NCBI GenBank assembly: GCA_003599815.1
Contig: QZJZ01000101.1
Span: forward strand, 1 to 30,396
DNA from: Candidatus Auribacter fodinae
GTDB lineage: Bacteria; Auribacterota; Auribacteria; Auribacterales; Auribacteraceae
Reading direction: 5' to 3'
Length of the DNA: 30,396 nucleotides
Part shown: positions 21,081-30,323 of the stretch, in pieces
Layout of the letters: each line of letters starts with the position of its first letter
How positions within the stretch are numbered: the first letter of the stretch is position 1
Notes under the pieces: model-generated
Seen by the model: the letters and a program-made list of their open reading frames with translations, nothing else
What the model was told of the DNA's origin: nothing
Database searches by the model: none
Position numbers and translations under genes: made by a program

Positions 21081-22934
21081 TTAATAAATAAGCATGGATT
21101 CCAGCTCAAGGTTGGCATCGAAAAATGATACCAGAACACAAACATATTTCAAGGGATTACAGTATGCCTTGAACCGATAAATTTGGACAGGTGAGTCGGC
21201 AAAACTATCCATTTTGCATTGTACCCGCCCAATAAGAGAGTTGTTTATCTGGTTGAAAACAGTGATTGCCCCATCCTCACAATACACATCATTCTGATAT
21301 TCGCCATTATACTTTACTCGAAATTCAAAGTTATATACTCCTTTGGGCAAGGCAATAGTAAAAGAGTAGTTTTTGTTCTTATTTGGTTTCCCTTCGGGGT
21401 TTAAAGGTTCCCAATACTCATCCTCATATACAGGATTAAAATATTTAACAGGGTAATTGGCATTTCCGTCTGTGATGTGCAACCCTGAAAAAATCTGATA
21501 AGACTCATATTCATTATGAGTAAAAGACAGCGTTTTCACCGCAGATAATGTACGTTCAAATTCCTCACACCTTGCAGATTGAATGCTTTCGGATAAATCA
21601 AATATATAACATCCCTGAGCAGAGTTGATTATGGAATACGTATATGGCTCATACCTATCAGCGCCCCATAACGGCGAAAGAATTACTGATTCATCCGCTA
21701 AAAAAGTCAACTTATATGCAACCCAAAAATCAGCGAATCCCTTTGTTAAATCCTTTTTCCGCAATGTATCAATTAAATCATAACCATTGGGCTCTGTCTT
21801 TGTTATGGATAATGTCAAGCATAGTTGAATAAGCGATAAGACCAAAATGATCCCCGCCATAAGAACTTTGCTGTTGCCCACAAACTTTTGCAACAGCAAG
21901 GAAGAAAGAATCGGCAGAAGAATTATCAGATGCATGAGGTGGCGTGACGTTCCCAAATCTTCATAATTTTGTTCATAAGAAAATGTGATAATTGTAGTTA
22001 TAAAAAAAAGAGAAAAGAGGTGTTTTGGAGCAAACGCTTTTGACTTCAGAAATTGTACAATTTCAGAGATAACAAGGATAAAAAGGAAAATATAAAAAAT
22101 ACTATTTATAACGCTGAAAGCGGGATACCCCCTATCAAAACTCAAAATATGAGGAATCTTAAAAAGTACTGCCCACACAAAAGATTTAAGCAAAGCAAAA
22201 ATGTTTGAATCCGAATTTCCCAGCGGATTATAATAATGAAAATTACGGCTTAAACCAATAAAATATGGAATCGCGCCAACTAGAAAAAAAATGCACCATG
22301 CAAAAATCTTCTCTATATGAAAAATCATAAAAGTTGATTCTTTAGAAATTACATATCTGATTGAATAAGTGACAATAAATAATAGTATAAAATAGATGAA
22401 CATAGGATGAGAATACCAACCGAAACCAGCAACCACTGCCGTCAAAAAGAAAAATAAACGCTTTTCTGTCCTGACATAATTGCCTAGTATCCATAAAAAA
22501 ACGATACCGAGAAGAATATAAGCCTGATAACCGCCATAAGCAATTGTAACAATTAATGAATGCGGCGGGATCGCTAGAAAAGCAAGGCATAATAATGCGA
22601 CTCTTTTGTCAAACAATGATCGTGCCATCAGAACAATCAATATAAAAGATAGTACGGAAAAGAACAAAGCGTATATCTTAAAAGCAAAGAGACCTGTGCC
22701 GAATATCCAGAAAAAGACAGAAAGGAAATAAGCAGGTAATGCCCCCAGATATGAGTGCCCGTACCAGAAAACTGGAAACTCCAATCCCAGCCTGATATGT
22801 TTTGCCATCAGGCATAATACTCCAGTGTCAGATGTAAAATAGTCCGCTGTTCCCATAATACTATGAACGCGGTATATAATCCCTATAACAAAAATAATAA
22901 ATATAACACTATACTGCAACAGAGTTTTCTTCAT
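21081..22934 (-). CDS. Polytopic membrane protein, GT-C-fold glycosyltransferase-like (ArnT/PMT-like) with C-terminal periplasmic domain
   Basis: 617 aa. About 12 predicted TM helices. First extracytoplasmic loop has YFTSDTGVLCLMAKHI, resembling the ArnT DExRYAEISREM loop motif. About 150-aa soluble C-terminal domain. Low GC. Confidence 0.55.
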   Translation of the reverse strand: MKKTLLQYSVIFIIFVIGIIYRVHSIMGTADYFTSDTGVLCLMAKHIRLGLEFPVFWYGHSYLGALPAYFLSVFFWIFGTGLFAFKIYALFFSVLSFILIVLMARSLFDKRVALLCLAFLAIPPHSLIVTIAYGGYQAYILLGIVFLWILGNYVRTEKRLFFFLTAVVAGFGWYSHPMFIYFILLFIVTYSIRYVISKESTFMIFHIEKIFAWCIFFLVGAIPYFIGLSRNFHYYNPLGNSDSNIFALLKSFVWAVLFKIPHILSFDRGYPAFSVINSIFYIFLFILVISEIVQFLKSKAFAPKHLFSLFFITTIITFSYEQNYEDLGTSRHLMHLIILLPILSSLLLQKFVGNSKVLMAGIILVLSLIQLCLTLSITKTEPNGYDLIDTLRKKDLTKGFADFWVAYKLTFLADESVILSPLWGADRYEPYTYSIINSAQGCYIFDLSESIQSARCEEFERTLSAVKTLSFTHNEYESYQIFSGLHITDGNANYPVKYFNPVYEDEYWEPLNPEGKPNKNKNYSFTIALPKGVYNFEFRVKYNGEYQNDVYCEDGAITVFNQINNSLIGRVQCKMDSFADSPVQIYRFKAYCNPLKYVCVLVSFFDANLELESMLIY

Positions 22935-24526
22935 AAAATTTGGTATATCCTCGATGGATATCTATACTTACTTCTTCTCTCCAAGAACTCAGCATATTCC
23001 GGTAAAAAATATTTGCCGATATTCATATAAACAATTTCCTTAAGGCGCTTTTTTGAAAAAATACTTCCTTGCGTTATAATAAGCAATCTATCGTAAAATC
23101 GCGATAAAATTTTGTCTTGTACTATATTAATACCCGAGGTTCTAGTTTCAATATATCCATCTGGAATAAAACGATCGAAATGTCCCGCGCGCCATTTGTC
23201 CCTGTATTTCCCTGGTAATCGCGCAAGAAAAGGGTCTGTCAGCGCATGAACATCAATAATATATTTAGCAGGCCCGGCATAATACCCAATCATTCCTACG
23301 CACGTTTTGACCGAAACAGGGGGAAGCTCATTAAACAAATTCTTATCAAGTGTTCGCTGCAAATGTAATAAACCCGTACTTTTATAATAAAATAATTGTT
23401 CATCGCCAACACCATGCGAATCTTCAAAACTAATGCTATGTTGCCGAAAAGCATACATTGGTATCTTTACCAAAGGATTCATTTTGGAAAACACCGCCGT
23501 AAGAATCAATAATATCCATAAGCACGTTAATATCCGTTTTAAAAGAACCTTTTCATAACTTTCAGAGGTTAAGATAGTAACAGCGCAAAACACTAATGGG
23601 CTTAAAAACCTTCCACTCATAAAACAGCCGCCGATTTTAACTATATACATGAGGTACAATAATACGGATATGGAACAGACATATAAATGGCGTCTCTTTA
23701 TCAAAAATGGAACAACAATACTGCAAAAAATTACGGGAAGCGTTACTGAGTCATGCTGGATCGAATTTAGTAGATAAAATACACCTTTATCATGCATTTC
23801 ATATGATGGAATACCTGCATATAATTTCGCATAAGCAGTGTTTGGTATCAAAAAACCATAATAGACTAAAGAAAATAGCTCCCACGTTACAATTGGTAAA
23901 AATCCAAGCAGTACAAATAATAACGCTTTTTTTGACCGGTTTCTCAAAAACAGGAAAACCAAGGGCGGAAGAAAAAGAATGAGATTATCAAGCCTGTTGA
24001 GAAGTGCAAGTGACGAGAGCAGTGAAAGAAAAAATAATTTTTTAGGGCAACACCTCTTATCAAGGTACACTACAAAATATAGTGCTACCAAGAGATGAGT
24101 TAAGGGGTTTTCCAATCCTGAAGACGAAAACTCAATAAAAGAATTTGAAAAGAGCAATATTATGATTCCCAAAATCGACACAAATAAGTTGTTAGCTATC
24201 TTCTTAATATAAAGAAAGAGAGTGCAGATCGAAAGCACAAGCGACAAAATATGTGTAGTATAAAATGCCTCTCTTGTAAAATAATAAAAAAAACTCAATA
24301 AAAACAGCCACAATGGGTGTGTATACGTCTGCACTCTTTCAACAACATTCCATCGCAACCCATAACCATTAACAAAATTATCAACTGTCCGGAAAGTTAT
24401 GTATGCATCATCGCAGAGCCAACTATTGATGATTAAAACATACAGCAGCAATATGCTTATCATTAGGTAAAATATGACGGCAAATTTTAAACTCCGCGCA
24501 CTGCCGCGGGACTGATCTGTTCTCAT
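22931..24526 (-). CDS. Polytopic membrane protein, GT-C-fold glycosyltransferase-like (CDDAYITFR loop motif)
   Basis: 531 aa. Multiple TM helices. First-loop motif LCDDAYITFRTVDNF is typical of PMT_2/GT-C-like membrane glycosyltransferases. Stop overlaps the downstream start (ATGA). Low GC. Confidence 0.55.
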   Translation of the reverse strand: MRTDQSRGSARSLKFAVIFYLMISILLLYVLIINSWLCDDAYITFRTVDNFVNGYGLRWNVVERVQTYTHPLWLFLLSFFYYFTREAFYTTHILSLVLSICTLFLYIKKIANNLFVSILGIIILLFSNSFIEFSSSGLENPLTHLLVALYFVVYLDKRCCPKKLFFLSLLSSLALLNRLDNLILFLPPLVFLFLRNRSKKALLFVLLGFLPIVTWELFSLVYYGFLIPNTAYAKLYAGIPSYEMHDKGVFYLLNSIQHDSVTLPVIFCSIVVPFLIKRRHLYVCSISVLLYLMYIVKIGGCFMSGRFLSPLVFCAVTILTSESYEKVLLKRILTCLWILLILTAVFSKMNPLVKIPMYAFRQHSISFEDSHGVGDEQLFYYKSTGLLHLQRTLDKNLFNELPPVSVKTCVGMIGYYAGPAKYIIDVHALTDPFLARLPGKYRDKWRAGHFDRFIPDGYIETRTSGINIVQDKILSRFYDRLLIITQGSIFSKKRLKEIVYMNIGKYFLPEYAEFLERRSKYRYPSRIYQIL

Positions 24527-24594
24527 AGTATAACCGGATAAAAAGGATTGATATTTAAAGCAGTATGATAATCGACACGCTGAGGAGATGTCAA

Positions 24595-25653
24595 TTACTC
24601 ACTCACACCATGTTCCTGCGCCGTATCCTCAACCACAAAGCCGGATGCAGATACCAGCGAATGGGCAGATACCAGAACAAGCACAGGGTACAGTTCCAGA
24701 GCGGCCCTCGTCTCTTCCAGATAACCAAAGAAAAGCATCAATGCAGACAACGGAATGCTCCATACCATCGCGTACCTGAGGAATAACGGTTTATCTGTCC
24801 ACCGGTAGAACATCAGAAACAGAAATAAAATACCCTGCACAACAAACGACATCGGGAATGGATCTGTCAACAGCCAGTAATTATGGTTAAACAAATGAAA
24901 CTCAACCACTCCGCCGGGGTTATCCCTGAATATAAAGGTCAAAGCCCCTTTTACCGCACAATACACAACGGCTTGCACCAGAATCCGCCGGACAAATAAA
25001 TCTTTTTTCATGCGGGTTCGGTAATACATCACGAAAAGCAGTAACAACAATACGGCTGTTTCCTTATTCACGCACGCCAGCAGGAACACAAGAAAATACC
25101 ATTTAAACTGACAACGCACCATTAGTCCCAGCGCCAGCGTGAACAGGAAAAGGGTCGATAAATCATAGATGTATTCCGTATCGAAAAACGGCGCCACACA
25201 CCAGATTGCCAGAATATGAACGGCGTCACGAACGACAGCAGGTCTAAACCGGAATACGCCGTCCAGTAAATATCCGGTTGAGAACGTAAATCCGAACATG
25301 CATAACAACAGGAGCAGGATAAGAATAACGTTTTCCAGTGCGTACTCGTTATCCCAGCTTTTTCTTTCAAAAAAGCCGTTGAGCAGTTCAATGCCGGCAA
25401 GCCTCTGCCTGATATCCGACTCCAGCCCCGCAGGAATCAGCGCCGCGCACAGCCTTACGCTTTGCGGTATCAATGCCCGGTACACGTACGGTTTTTGCGC
25501 TGTGCCGTATACCATGCCGCTTATGGTTGCCTGATCGGAGTTAAGGTAGGGATATCGCATAAAAATGGAAAAAATCCAAAGGGTAGACACAATCAGGATA
25601 AAATATACAGCCGCGCGATAAAACAGGTTTCTCATTGCCTCATAGTTTTTCAT
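24595..25653 (-). CDS. Polytopic integral membrane protein of unknown function
   Basis: 352 aa, about 9 hydrophobic segments. GGAG RBS. No recognisable motif. Confidence 0.5.
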   Translation of the reverse strand: MKNYEAMRNLFYRAAVYFILIVSTLWIFSIFMRYPYLNSDQATISGMVYGTAQKPYVYRALIPQSVRLCAALIPAGLESDIRQRLAGIELLNGFFERKSWDNEYALENVILILLLLLCMFGFTFSTGYLLDGVFRFRPAVVRDAVHILAIWCVAPFFDTEYIYDLSTLFLFTLALGLMVRCQFKWYFLVFLLACVNKETAVLLLLLFVMYYRTRMKKDLFVRRILVQAVVYCAVKGALTFIFRDNPGGVVEFHLFNHNYWLLTDPFPMSFVVQGILFLFLMFYRWTDKPLFLRYAMVWSIPLSALMLFFGYLEETRAALELYPVLVLVSAHSLVSASGFVVEDTAQEHGVSE

Positions 25654-25808
25654 TGATTCTCCATAATTCAGAGACTATCATTCATTGGTGTACCAATTAT
25701 TCCCATTGAGAATACATTGTATTCTATCCGCTTTTAAGATAATATCAGAAAAAATAAGATTCAAGAACATATATGCATTGCGTATATATTAACCGATGAC
25801 GGGTATTA

Positions 25809-26402
25809 ATGGGTATAGAACAATTACCAGCATTTATTCGTGATAACTACGAAATACATGAAAAGAATCATGCCTGCGCGATTCTAAAAGAAGATTTTCC
25901 TTGCGAATGGAACGATCTAATTGATCTGCTAACAGAATTTCGCCTCAAAAGAAGCTGGATAATCAATCCCGGGGGAAGTAAATCAAAAGTATCAAGCCAC
26001 ATTGATGATTTTCTATCCGAGCGTGGGTGGAAAGAAAAACAATTTCAGACACAGATTGTAATTGACGAAGTAACAACAGAAACACCGACGCATAAGATTG
26101 ATTGTTTTAAAAACAGAGTCGCCTTGGAAATTGAATGGAACAACAAAGATCCTTTTTTTGACCGCGATTTAAATAATTTCAGGCTCCTTTTTGATCTCCG
26201 TGCGATCAGCATAGGCATAATAATCACACGATGCGATGAGTTACAGAATATCTTTAATACATTAGGCAGAGGAAGTTCATACGGAGCATCCACAACTCAT
26301 ATTGGTAAATTAATCCCAAAAATCAATGGCGGCGGCAGTGCCGGATGCCCTCTTTTAGTCTTTGGAATAAAACGCGCTCTTTATTTGGAGGATATAGAAT
26401 GA
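25809..26402 (+). CDS. Putative Type II restriction endonuclease (PD-(D/E)xK-like, BglII/BamHI-type spacing)
   Basis: 197 aa. Candidate active site KID...(9)ALEIEW has the D-x9-E-x-E spacing seen in BglII/BamHI-type enzymes. Low GC. Stop overlaps the start of a DNA methyltransferase. Confidence 0.5.
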   Translation: MGIEQLPAFIRDNYEIHEKNHACAILKEDFPCEWNDLIDLLTEFRLKRSWIINPGGSKSKVSSHIDDFLSERGWKEKQFQTQIVIDEVTTETPTHKIDCFKNRVALEIEWNNKDPFFDRDLNNFRLLFDLRAISIGIIITRCDELQNIFNTLGRGSSYGASTTHIGKLIPKINGGGSAGCPLLVFGIKRALYLEDIE

Positions 26403-27073
26403 CATCGCCCGCTTCTCGCGATTTATTACAGTCCGTTGGAGATAGAAAATTTTCTACAGTATTGGCTGATCCTCCATGGCAGTTTAAAAATCGTACAGGA
26501 AAAATGGCTCCTGAACATAAACGTCTTCAACGCTACCCTACAATGACCTTAAGCGAAATTAAAGAATTGCCGGTACAGTCAATCGTCACGGAAACCGCCC
26601 ACTTATATTTATGGGTGCCCAATGCCCTCCTTGCCGAAGGGTTAGAAGTTATGAAGAGTTGGGGCTTTGAATATAAAACGAATATCATCTGGTACAAAGT
26701 GCGTAAGGACGGCGGACCTGATAGAAGAGGTGTCGGCTTTTATTTCAGAAATGTGACTGAAATGGTGCTTTTCGGCACAAGAGGAACAGGCGCCCGAACT
26801 CTCCAAGCCGGGCGGAGTCAGGAAAACGTTATCATTTCACAAAAGCGCGAACACAGCAGAAAACCAGATGAACAATATAAGCTGATTGAGTCATGCAGTA
26901 GATCTCCATTTATCGAGCTGTTTGCTCGCGGTTCCCAGCCAAACTGGTTCTCGTGGGGCAACCAGGCACAAAGCTATTCCCCTGATTGGCCAACATACAG
27001 CAATCATTCCCAGGCAAACATGCTGGAATTCGAACAAAATTCGTTTTGTTTAAATTCAACAGCAACAAAATGA
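26399..27073 (+). CDS. MT-A70-family (M.MunI-like) N6-adenine DNA methyltransferase
   Basis: DPPWQF catalytic motif near the N-terminus. HLYLWVPN, IIWYKVRK and the MVLFGTRGTG SAM-binding motif follow in the circularly permuted order typical of MT-A70. GGAGG RBS. ATGA overlap with the upstream ORF. Confidence 0.8.
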   Translation: MTSPASRDLLQSVGDRKFSTVLADPPWQFKNRTGKMAPEHKRLQRYPTMTLSEIKELPVQSIVTETAHLYLWVPNALLAEGLEVMKSWGFEYKTNIIWYKVRKDGGPDRRGVGFYFRNVTEMVLFGTRGTGARTLQAGRSQENVIISQKREHSRKPDEQYKLIESCSRSPFIELFARGSQPNWFSWGNQAQSYSPDWPTYSNHSQANMLEFEQNSFCLNSTATK

Positions 27074-27202
27074 TACTATCTTGCATATCTTCGCCGGCAT
27101 AAAATAGTTCTTTTCAAAACCACACCTGTCACATAAAATGATAACCGGGTCAGTTGCTTAAATGTTTTAGGACACCTCGACATAATTCAGCGAAAGATAC
27201 TT

Positions 27203-28380: not shown

Positions 28381-29406
28381 ATGTACAGGAATTTCACTTA
28401 TTTTTTATGTTGCGGATTTGCTGTCCTGTGGGGATGTACCGATCCTGTAACCGATCGGCAAAACGATTCTCACGAGAACGCCGCGCTCATAAATCCGCTG
28501 GCAGGGAAAAAAGTTTTGTATGTGGATTCGTATCATCCTGAATACATGCATAGCAAAATCGTTATGCACACGACAAGAAAAATACTTACAGATCAGGGAA
28601 TCATCTTGAAGGTTATATATCTTGACGCGAAACGAAAAAAAAGCGACGAACAGCTCACACGGGCCGGATTGGCCGCAAAACAGGTTATAGACGAATGGAA
28701 GCCTGACCTTGTTATCGCCGCGGACGATGCCGCCAGCAAATATCTTATCGCTCCGTATTACCGAAATAGCTCCCTGCCTGTAGTTTTTGTCGGTATAAAC
28801 TGGGACGCTGAACCGTACGGATATCCTCTGCCCAATGTCACCGGGCAGATCGAAATCGAGTTTGTTGAAGGGCTAATATCCGAACTGCTGAAATACGCTA
28901 AGGGTGACCGCATCGGCATCATCATGGGCAACACCCTGACACAGAAAAAGATATTCTCTCATTACACGCAGAAATTACATATTAGTTTCGCGCAACAGGC
29001 CGCGGTGGATACATATGAAGAATGGAAACAGCACTATATCCAGATCCAAAAACACGTTGACCTTTTGATCGTATGGAACAATGCCGGCATTGAAGGCTGG
29101 GACGACAATGACGCAAAATCTTTTATTGAAAACAACACTGTTATTCCCACAGGCAGTTTTCCTATTCATATGGCTCCTTTTGTCCTGATGAACTATTCGA
29201 ATGTATCAACTGAATTCGGCGAGTATGCCGCAAAAACAGCAATCCGCATTTTAAACGGCACGCTTCCGTCCGATATACCCCTTACAAAGAACGCTCAGTT
29301 AAAAGTATATTTGAATATGCGGCTTGCAAAAAAGCTGAACATTATATTCCCCATGGATCTTATAAGGCGTTCAAATTTTGTGCAGGAGAGGCATCTCGAA
29401 GAATGA
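28381..29406 (+). CDS. Paralogous PF04392/COG2984-type periplasmic substrate-binding lipoprotein (tandem duplicate)
   Basis: About 65-70% identical over most of its length to the 27203-28252 product (KKxLYVDSY.P.Y.HSKI...AAKQVIDEWKPD...APYYRN..LPVVFVG.NW). Lipobox LWGC. ATG at 28381 preferred over the TTG at 28372. Confidence 0.7.
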   Translation: MYRNFTYFLCCGFAVLWGCTDPVTDRQNDSHENAALINPLAGKKVLYVDSYHPEYMHSKIVMHTTRKILTDQGIILKVIYLDAKRKKSDEQLTRAGLAAKQVIDEWKPDLVIAADDAASKYLIAPYYRNSSLPVVFVGINWDAEPYGYPLPNVTGQIEIEFVEGLISELLKYAKGDRIGIIMGNTLTQKKIFSHYTQKLHISFAQQAAVDTYEEWKQHYIQIQKHVDLLIVWNNAGIEGWDDNDAKSFIENNTVIPTGSFPIHMAPFVLMNYSNVSTEFGEYAAKTAIRILNGTLPSDIPLTKNAQLKVYLNMRLAKKLNIIFPMDLIRRSNFVQERHLEE

Positions 29407-30323
29407 AAATAAATACCATCAATACAAAGATACTTATGATAATAGCGTCCGCCTTCATAATAATGACATTAAGCATTTACCTGTTCGCGTCGCATTACCT
29501 GAAAAGTATGATCGACGGGTATCAGGAAAGCGTCTATTCGGAAAAAATCGACACTATTCTTGATATGCTGGAACGCAAATACGAACATCTCACTGAAACA
29601 TTTCTCATTGATGCCTACGAAGAAGATTTCAAACAATCGTTTCTTGAAGATTTCCGGTCATCATATTTCACCGGCAATGACCAAAAGGTATATCCTTTCA
29701 TACTGGATTCAAAAGGGAAATGCATGATTGACGCCGGAATGAACGGCAAATCGTGCCCGCCTAAGGAAAAAAGTTTTTTTGCGGAAGTGAAAAATGAGAA
29801 AAAAGGGTCGTTTGAGTATGCTTTCAAAGGGTCAGCCTACTGGGTCATAAAAAGGCATTTCCCTCAATGGGACTGGTACATCGGGTATATTGTGCCTCTT
29901 TCAGTAAAATACACTCACTTTTACTCGTTCCGGGATATTCTTGCCATGATTATGGCTGTAACAACCGTTCTGGCTCTATTTATTGTATCCCTGCTTGTCA
30001 CCAACTTTACAAAACCGATTTACCAGCTCACAAAAGCCTCGCTGGCGCTCTCTTCCGGCAACCTTGATTACCCCATGAAAGTGAATTCTTCTGATGAAAC
30101 AGGCATACTGACGCAATCATTTTTATCGATGCGCGACGCTATCCGTAAAACCATCCGTGACTTAAACGAGAAAAACACCATCCTCACACAGGAAATAGCT
30201 GAAAGAAAACGTATAGCCCATGCCCTCAAAGACAGCGAGCAGAGATACCGCCTGCTTGTTGAAAACCAGAATGATCTTGTCATTAAATTTGATACCAGCT
30301 GTTCATGCTCAGTAATTAGGTAA
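29403..30323 (+). CDS. Membrane sensor protein: TM1, periplasmic Cache-like domain, TM2, HAMP, coiled coil and the first residues of a PAS domain. Ends prematurely with no output domain
   Basis: Two TM helices bracket an approximately 150-aa extracytoplasmic domain. The HAMP-like segment after TM2 is followed by RYRLLVENQNDLVIKFD (PAS start), then a stop 10 codons later. ATGA overlap with the upstream binding-protein gene. Confidence 0.6.
   Translation: MKINTINTKILMIIASAFIIMTLSIYLFASHYLKSMIDGYQESVYSEKIDTILDMLERKYEHLTETFLIDAYEEDFKQSFLEDFRSSYFTGNDQKVYPFILDSKGKCMIDAGMNGKSCPPKEKSFFAEVKNEKKGSFEYAFKGSAYWVIKRHFPQWDWYIGYIVPLSVKYTHFYSFRDILAMIMAVTTVLALFIVSLLVTNFTKPIYQLTKASLALSSGNLDYPMKVNSSDETGILTQSFLSMRDAIRKTIRDLNEKNTILTQEIAERKRIAHALKDSEQRYRLLVENQNDLVIKFDTSCSCSVIR

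Follow-up and report, generated by a model that had tools for sequence, protein, structure and literature searches.

A probable chromosomal restriction-modification operon of the Nph3I kind in Candidatus Auribacter fodinae, with RGATCY as its predicted site

The DNA analysed here is a stretch of 30,396 nucleotides (nt) from Candidatus Auribacter fodinae (contig QZJZ01000101.1), referred to as the window, in which two + strand open reading frames (ORFs) occupy positions 25809-27073. The first gene, R (25809..26402, + strand), encodes a restriction endonuclease of 197 amino acids (aa) that belongs to Type IIP and to the BglII/BstYI family, as identified by its match to the Pfam family PF09195, by sequence identity and by predicted fold. 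The second gene, M (26399..27073, + strand), encodes a 224-aa N6-adenine DNA methyltransferase of the MT-A70 family, as identified by PF05063 and by sequence identity. The two proteins are the orthologues of R.Nph3I and M.Nph3I, respectively. Judged from its sequence, the pair very probably forms a Type IIP restriction-modification (R-M) operon of the Nph3I kind on the chromosome of this organism, with RGATCY as the site and N6-methyladenine (m6A, also written as 6mA) as the modification. The kind of system is known, and the window adds to it a member from a candidate phylum that has been little studied; neither the pairing nor the site is new.

Orthology with Nph3I and the predicted recognition site

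Nph3I is an R-M system of the Nitratiruptor phage NrS-3, in which R.Nph3I is encoded by NRS3_08 (BCD83124.1) and M.Nph3I by NRS3_07 (BCD83123.1) (mSystems 2023, PMC10734518). As reported in that study, R.Nph3I cuts AGATCT, GGATCC, AGATCC and GGATCT in vitro and is fully blocked by 6mA in the site, while M.Nph3I converts RGATCY to RG(6mA)TCY in vitro. With SMRT sequencing, RG(6mA)TCY was observed to be essentially complete in both the phage and its host, and both enzymes are registered in REBASE (PMC10734518).

Window R aligns with R.Nph3I over 194 aa at 67% identity without a single gap, and window M with M.Nph3I over 199 aa at 72% identity. Further, the two phage proteins match the same Pfam families as the window pair. 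As in Nph3I, R is followed by M on one strand, and no controller (C) protein accompanies them. The Nph3I proteins measure 195 and 209 aa, as against 197 and 224 aa in the window, where the C-terminus of M is about 15 residues longer. The settings of the two systems are different: the Nph3I genes are present in a temperate phage near an integrase and are separated by 12 nt, whereas the window pair is on the chromosome, has housekeeping-type genes on either side, belongs to a candidate phylum of the PVC group and shows an overlap of 4 nt. The block PTHK(I/V)DCFKN...E(I/V)EWNNKDPFFDRDLNNFRLLF is common to window R, R.Nph3I and the nuclease of Acinetobacter sp. TR3, which is described below.

An initial annotation of this DNA, made from its letters alone, had called the recognition site unknown. 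Because the orthologue Nph3I has been characterised biochemically as an RGATCY system, the site of the window pair can be predicted, by analogy and with good confidence, as RGATCY.

The nuclease and its predicted fold

R matches the Pfam family Endonuc-BglII (PF09195) with an E-value of 1.9e-47 and 161.5 bits (cut-off 26) over the whole profile (positions 1-163 of 163), and this is the sole Pfam family matched. A single-sequence phmmer search of R against the PDB sequences found nothing meaningful; BstYI was reached only with a profile of 35 diverse homologues, which matches it among the PDB sequences at an E-value of 2.9e-5. In the profile alignment, D98, E107, E109 and K113 of R fall on D119, E128, Q130 and K133 of BstYI.

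These residues lie in the catalytic block of R (26100..26147, + strand; peptide HKIDCFKNRVALEIEWNNK), which was located through the conservation among homologues and the alignment to BstYI. The motif reads D98-x8-E107-x-E109, and its counterpart in BstYI is D119-x8-E128-x-Q130. The spacing was first given as D-x9-E-x-E and is corrected here to x8, which is that of the BglII/BstYI type. BamHI has a longer catalytic spacing than D-x8-E, the third catalytic position of BglII is a glutamine, and K133 of BstYI is known as a determinant of the outer base, where contacts are made by K133 and S172. In the 35 diverse homologues, D98, E109, W110, N111 and K113 are conserved at 90% or more, and they are invariant among the further R proteins that were compared. 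Window R carries every residue that is near-invariant in the alignment of its family.

A confident AlphaFold2 model of R was obtained from the homologue alignment (pLDDT 95, pTM 0.91). Through Foldseek, the closest PDB structures were found to be three BstYI entries (TM 0.64-0.70, E-values 4e-8 to 2e-7), followed by BamHI. No other PDB fold was matched at an E-value of 0.001 or less, and the EcoRI/MunI and BglII chains were not among the significant matches. Taken together, the Pfam match, the BstYI alignment and the predicted structure support a place for R in the BamHI/BglII/BstYI group of PD-(D/E)xK nucleases rather than in the EcoRI/MunI group, in agreement with what had been proposed for this 197-aa protein at the outset.

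The closest solved fold, that of BstYI (RGATCY; PDB 1SDO, 1VRR, 2P0J), is related to R at a sequence identity of only about 17%. The two enzymes nevertheless have the same D-x8-E-x-(Q/E) spacing, a lysine aligned with K133 and the same predicted site. Similarly, BglII, after which the Pfam family is called, shares the fold and the D-x8-E-x-Q spacing with R, and the GATC core with the site predicted for R. BglII is protected by an N4-cytosine methylase and not by an adenine methylase of the MT-A70 family. Its cutting is confined to AGATCT (PMC10734518). The BstYI isoschizomer MflI is blocked by 6mA, as is Nph3I, and the 6mA sensitivity of BstYI is the opposite of that of MflI (PMC10734518); BstYI is therefore taken not to be blocked by 6mA.

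The methylase and the start of its gene

M matches the Pfam family MT-A70 (PF05063) with an E-value of 9.2e-36 and 123.8 bits (cut-off 23.9), here too over the whole profile (positions 1-172 of 172). The description of the locus as a compact two-gene Type II R-M pair stands. The motifs noticed earlier are also present in M, where residues 24-27 read DPPW, 69-75 LYLWVPN and 125-129 FGTRG; only the length of 225 aa then assigned has to be changed to 224. The DPPW codons (26468..26479, + strand) align to the DPPW of both MTA1 and M.Nph3I, and their position near the N-terminus of the domain, as in MTA1, reflects the permuted motif order of MT-A70.

The best PDB sequence matches of M are Tetrahymena MTA1, a DNA 6mA methylase (5e-21), and METTL3 (2e-17), and the kinship to METTL3-type enzymes suggested initially is thus borne out. 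No bacterial MT-A70 member is present among the solved structures matched by M. The MT-A70 catalytic domain with its DPPW is common to M, Tetrahymena MTA1/AMT1 and METTL3-METTL14. Unlike these eukaryotic proteins, M is a bare domain of the roughly 210-220-aa type, with neither accessory domains nor a gene for a partner subunit. It works alongside a restriction nuclease to which it is coupled, and the substrate of its orthologue is a defined hexamer of duplex DNA. In the published phylogeny, the eukaryotic MT-A70 clade is nested within the bacterial radiation (PMC4738411). The tie of this clade to MunI-type systems, assumed in the initial annotation, finds no backing for the window subfamily in either the data or the literature, the partner here being of the BglII family.

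The frame of M is open from 26345, which gives a longer in-frame ORF of 242 aa. The start at ATG 26399-26401, leading to 224 aa, fits the N-termini of the homologues as well as a Shine-Dalgarno sequence, GGAGG (26387..26391, + strand), which was read 7 nt before this codon within the 3' end of R. An NCBI protein of Candidatus Auribacter fodinae (P0122) is identical to the 224-aa M, and the 197-aa R is likewise present in NCBI. As had been noticed before, the start of the methylase gene overlaps the stop of R: the ATG and the TGA at 26400-26402 are joined as ATGA, an overlap of 4 nt. The low GC content remarked on for the 197-aa ORF was also confirmed, as the GC of R is 0.38, lower than that of M at 0.447, of the window at 0.446 and of the genes on either side at 0.47 and 0.45. 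An AT-rich intergenic region with a GC of 0.30 precedes R (25654..25808, + strand) and is the presumed location of the operon promoter. In the ORF list of the window, no helix-turn-helix (HTH) controller, or C protein, is found between or beside R and M.

Proposed mechanism

R would most likely act as a homodimer, in which D98, E107 and E109 bind Mg2+, and would cleave 5'-RGATCY-3' when it is unmethylated. The cut probably falls after the R base, as judged from BstYI and BglII, and would leave 5'-GATC ends. M, which is of monomer size, would move a methyl group from S-adenosylmethionine to the N6 of the RGATCY adenine on both strands. The methylated adenine would then block the nuclease, and the host DNA would be protected. 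Both proteins would be co-expressed from one operon, and M is probably translationally coupled to R because of the ATGA overlap and the GGAGG before M.

The window contains 21 RGATCY sites among 107 GATC. One of these, AGATCC (26147..26152), lies within R, and another, AGATCT (26900..26905), within M; both are strand-neutral, were found by a site scan and would be own sites of the system. An RGATCY site lies inside the R.Nph3I gene too (PMC10734518). The presence of such sites in the window, including both genes, is as expected if the methylase protects the host.

Spread of the pair and its names in databases

The homologue searches with R and M gave at least 8,000 matches each, and the top matches of both are 72-80% identical and come from many phyla. 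When each species was represented by one genome, a close relative of R was found to be encoded in at least 572 of these genomes. The gene neighbourhood was counted in the best 80 loci of these genomes: an MT-A70 gene lies directly downstream of R on the same strand in 78 of them, the gap ranging from -6 to +59 nt. One of the two exceptions is at a contig end, and the other is an R without M. In the latter locus (L059:9980-10588; Candidatus Electronema sp., contig JAPEVH010000012.1), the lone R homologue is 68% identical to window R by tblastn, the whole 20-kb locus has no MT-A70 gene, and a large unrelated gene begins on the opposite strand right after the homologue. Its near-invariant G55 is replaced as well (NPSRSKS as against NPGGxKS). 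It is probably a decaying remnant that has outlived the loss of M.

The same R-M pair is known from the Nitratiruptor phages NrS-2 and NrS-3, the Mesorhizobium phage Lo5R7ANS and IMG/VR contigs; it was present in 2 phage genomes and in the majority of the viral contigs found. An all-library HMMER search for the nuclease family gave 1,191 clusters at 50% identity. A second subfamily of BglII/BstYI nucleases, about 30% identical to window R, is paired with the same methylase (61-73% identical), usually in a convergent arrangement. Such pairs were seen on plasmids of Comamonas, Xanthomonas, Rhizobium/Agrobacterium and Roseomonas and in the viral loci L093-L100. Since the methylase is far better conserved than its nuclease partner across the two subfamilies, swapping of the nuclease partner within one specificity is suggested.

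The names carried by these proteins vary with the source. NCBI uses 'BglII/BstYI family type II restriction endonuclease' and 'MT-A70 family methyltransferase'. NCBIfam has no dedicated model that matches R or M. Elsewhere, the nuclease is a 'restriction endonuclease' or a 'hypothetical protein', and some NCBI copies of the methylase are called 'S-adenosylmethionine-binding protein'. JGI labels the DNA methylase family as 'N6-adenosine-specific RNA methylase IME4', and the GenBank record of NrS-3 (LC545444.1; L082:3001-3588) calls the nuclease R.Nph3I a 'methyltransferase'. Annotation errors are thus propagating for both R.Nph3I and the MT-A70 DNA methylases.

Other systems compared

In Acinetobacter baumannii A118, a cluster of a methyltransferase (H0N27_10820), an HTH regulator (10825) and a restriction enzyme (10830) has been described (NAR 2023, PMC10287943). 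There, m6A at RGATCY was tied genetically to the system, which restricts incoming DNA; Dam methylation protects the DNA (PMC10287943). Like window R, the A118 nuclease is of the BglII/BstYI family, and the A118 methylase is annotated as 'DNA adenine methylase'. The comparison with A118 runs through a plasmid of the same gene make-up, pTR3_1 of Acinetobacter sp. TR3, and not through the A118 sequences themselves. The TR3 nuclease is 54% identical to window R. Unlike the window, the TR3 cluster has a D12-class (Dam-like) methylase of about 390 aa instead of an MT-A70 enzyme and contains an HTH controller gene, which is carried by the relatives with a D12-class methylase.

Two further sources were considered and set aside. 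MCA0246 of Methylococcus capsulatus (651 bp) is predicted by REBASE to act on RGATCY, which is methylated in the Bath strain (PMC13390346); its size would fit a putative place in the window R-M family. The RGATCY methylases of Blow et al. (2016), including M.DalL21ORFEP (m6A, with a nuclease), are reported without their protein families, and no link was made.

The predicted site and the alternatives

Words were counted in 1.19 Mb of flanks from 80 host loci together with the window, with the R-M genes masked. The non-palindromic words of RGATCY, AGATCC/GGATCT, have an observed/expected (O/E) ratio of 0.89. They were compared with their analogues of the A-core-C and C-core-A form, 32 words in all from the 16 palindromic 4-mer cores, and none of these is as depleted. 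The next lowest stands at 0.96, and the other non-palindromic NGATCN words range from 1.00 to 1.33. This depletion agrees in direction, if weakly, with the orthology to Nph3I. As for the palindromes in these flanks, no 4-mer or 6-mer stands out by avoidance, many of them having an O/E of 0.5-0.65.

Several points weigh against an Nph3I-like operon acting on RGATCY. The third catalytic position of R is E109, like that of BamHI, and BstYI has Q130 there. The O/E ratios of AGATCT (0.61) and GGATCC (0.57) in the flanks are no lower than those of many other palindromes, and the depletion of AGATCC/GGATCT is itself weak, with a z of about -2.4 and a rank near the 5th percentile of non-palindromic hexamers. 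The specificity would be transferred from an orthologue at 67-72% identity, a distance at which specificity may occasionally change. The last 20 or so residues of M (about 205-224, window 27011-27073, ...ANMLEFEQNSFCLNSTATK) have no counterpart in the homologues, the majority of which stop at 210-220 aa; this tail may be a read-through extension that followed the loss of the ancestral stop. Lastly, the promoter and terminator scans of the region gave nothing above the shuffled expectation. The promoter scan 5' of R returned a single + strand match (25653-25681, 9/12), with 4 promoter-like matches in the region as against 4.8 expected from shuffled sequence.

It is unlikely that the window pair, while retaining the same architecture and mechanism, has a specificity other than RGATCY, be it a subset (such as AGATCT or GGATCC only) or another hexamer with a 4-base core. 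BglII, BstYI and BamHI do have one common fold and differ at the outer base pair (PMC2731914). Such a change could also be accommodated by the identity to Nph3I, which is short of near-identity for both proteins, and by the palindromes, whose avoidance singles out no site. Against it stand the gapless alignment of R to R.Nph3I and the block PTHK[IV]DCFKN...EIEWNNKDPFFDRDLNNFRLLF, which is identical or nearly so in R.Nph3I and is kept in relatives further removed. The same block is present in the relative of the Acinetobacter type, which has the layout of the RGATCY-linked A118 cluster. K113 is aligned with K133 of BstYI, the residue with the outer-base role, and it is AGATCC/GGATCT that is specifically low in the host flanks. 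That the window pair has drifted to a specificity or a methylation sensitivity unlike that of Nph3I is rather improbable; in such a case, E109, where BstYI and BglII have a glutamine, might go along with an altered preference for the outer base, as might the tail that is unique to M.

Decay or silencing of the system is very unlikely, whether R is inactive or unexpressed, M is effectively an orphan or both genes are relics. Relics do occur in the family, as in the lone R homologue of Candidatus Electronema with its replaced G55, and the scans gave no promoter above chance for the window pair. Both window ORFs, on the other hand, are intact and of full length against the profiles, none of the near-invariant residues of the R family is missing, and the coupling signals GGAGG and ATGA are preserved.

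With an intact RGATCY system of the Nph3I kind as the preferred reading, two suggestions remain to be dealt with. The initial annotation had seen here an MT-A70 methylase and a nuclease of the BglII/BamHI fold in a pairing not catalogued before, with an unknown site, for which the missing NCBIfam models and the RNA-methylase label of JGI could be cited; it is extremely unlikely, as the MT-A70 clade had already been linked to BglII-type R-M systems by Iyer et al. (2016) (PMC4738411), Nph3I has been characterised and registered (PMC10734518), and the adjacent pair is both widespread and named by NCBI. It is just as hard to credit that M is an RNA m6A methylase placed beside a nuclease by accident, as its JGI product name and its similarity to METTL3 might imply, given that M.Nph3I methylates DNA at RGATCY in vitro (PMC10734518), that the adjacency to a restriction nuclease is strict across phyla and that the best PDB match is the DNA methylase MTA1.

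Genomic surroundings

The neighbours of the R-M pair are ordinary chromosomal genes, namely those of ClpB, an M48 peptidase and GpsA, along with membrane proteins on the opposite strand and lipoproteins and a sensor downstream. No integrase, transposase or controller gene adjoins the pair in the examined part of the window. The cassette is probably of horizontal origin. A 13-nt direct repeat, CATAATTCAGAGA / CATAATTCAGCGA (12/13), is present at 25662-25674 and 27181-27193, within the flanking intergenic regions, and brackets the cassette. It could be an insertion scar, although its frequency is near chance, with about one such match expected in 2.2 kb by a rough estimate.

Upstream of the cassette, three consecutive large membrane-protein genes occupy 21081-25653 on the - strand, and a low-GC stretch (22001-24500, GC 0.31-0.38) lies within them. 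Pfam matches the first alone, and weakly, with the glycosyltransferase-like PMT_2 at less than the gathering score; neither of the others is matched. The stretch may be a separate, horizontally acquired island for cell-envelope glycosylation. Downstream, two tandem paralogous lipoprotein-like genes of the ABC_sub_bind family (PF04392; 27203-28252 and 28372-29406) are 62% identical over 300 aa. The second overlaps by 4 nt a HAMP/Cache sensor gene (29403-30323) that lies towards the end of the window. Together, they look like a duplicated ligand-binding module that feeds a signalling protein.

Significance

The analysis gives two proteins, which carry different names in different sources, a confident functional label and the prediction of RGATCY, with m6A, as their site. 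The lineage is among the most widely spread small R-M cassettes in these searches, being present in phages, on plasmids and, across many phyla, in at least 572 species, and its methylase is a bacterial neighbour of the eukaryotic MT-A70 enzymes. Neither the wide spread nor the eukaryotic neighbourhood goes beyond the literature or what it directly implies, and the significance beyond annotation is little. If a drift in specificity were true, the pair would represent a natural specificity switch in one very widely transferred lineage of BglII/BstYI nucleases and MT-A70 methylases. Such a switch would be useful because efforts to alter the specificity of BstYI, BglII and BamHI by engineering have largely failed. 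For Candidatus Auribacter fodinae itself, the prediction is that DNA introduced into this organism, or binned by methylation, should carry RG(6mA)TCY, and that Dam-methylated DNA would be protected.

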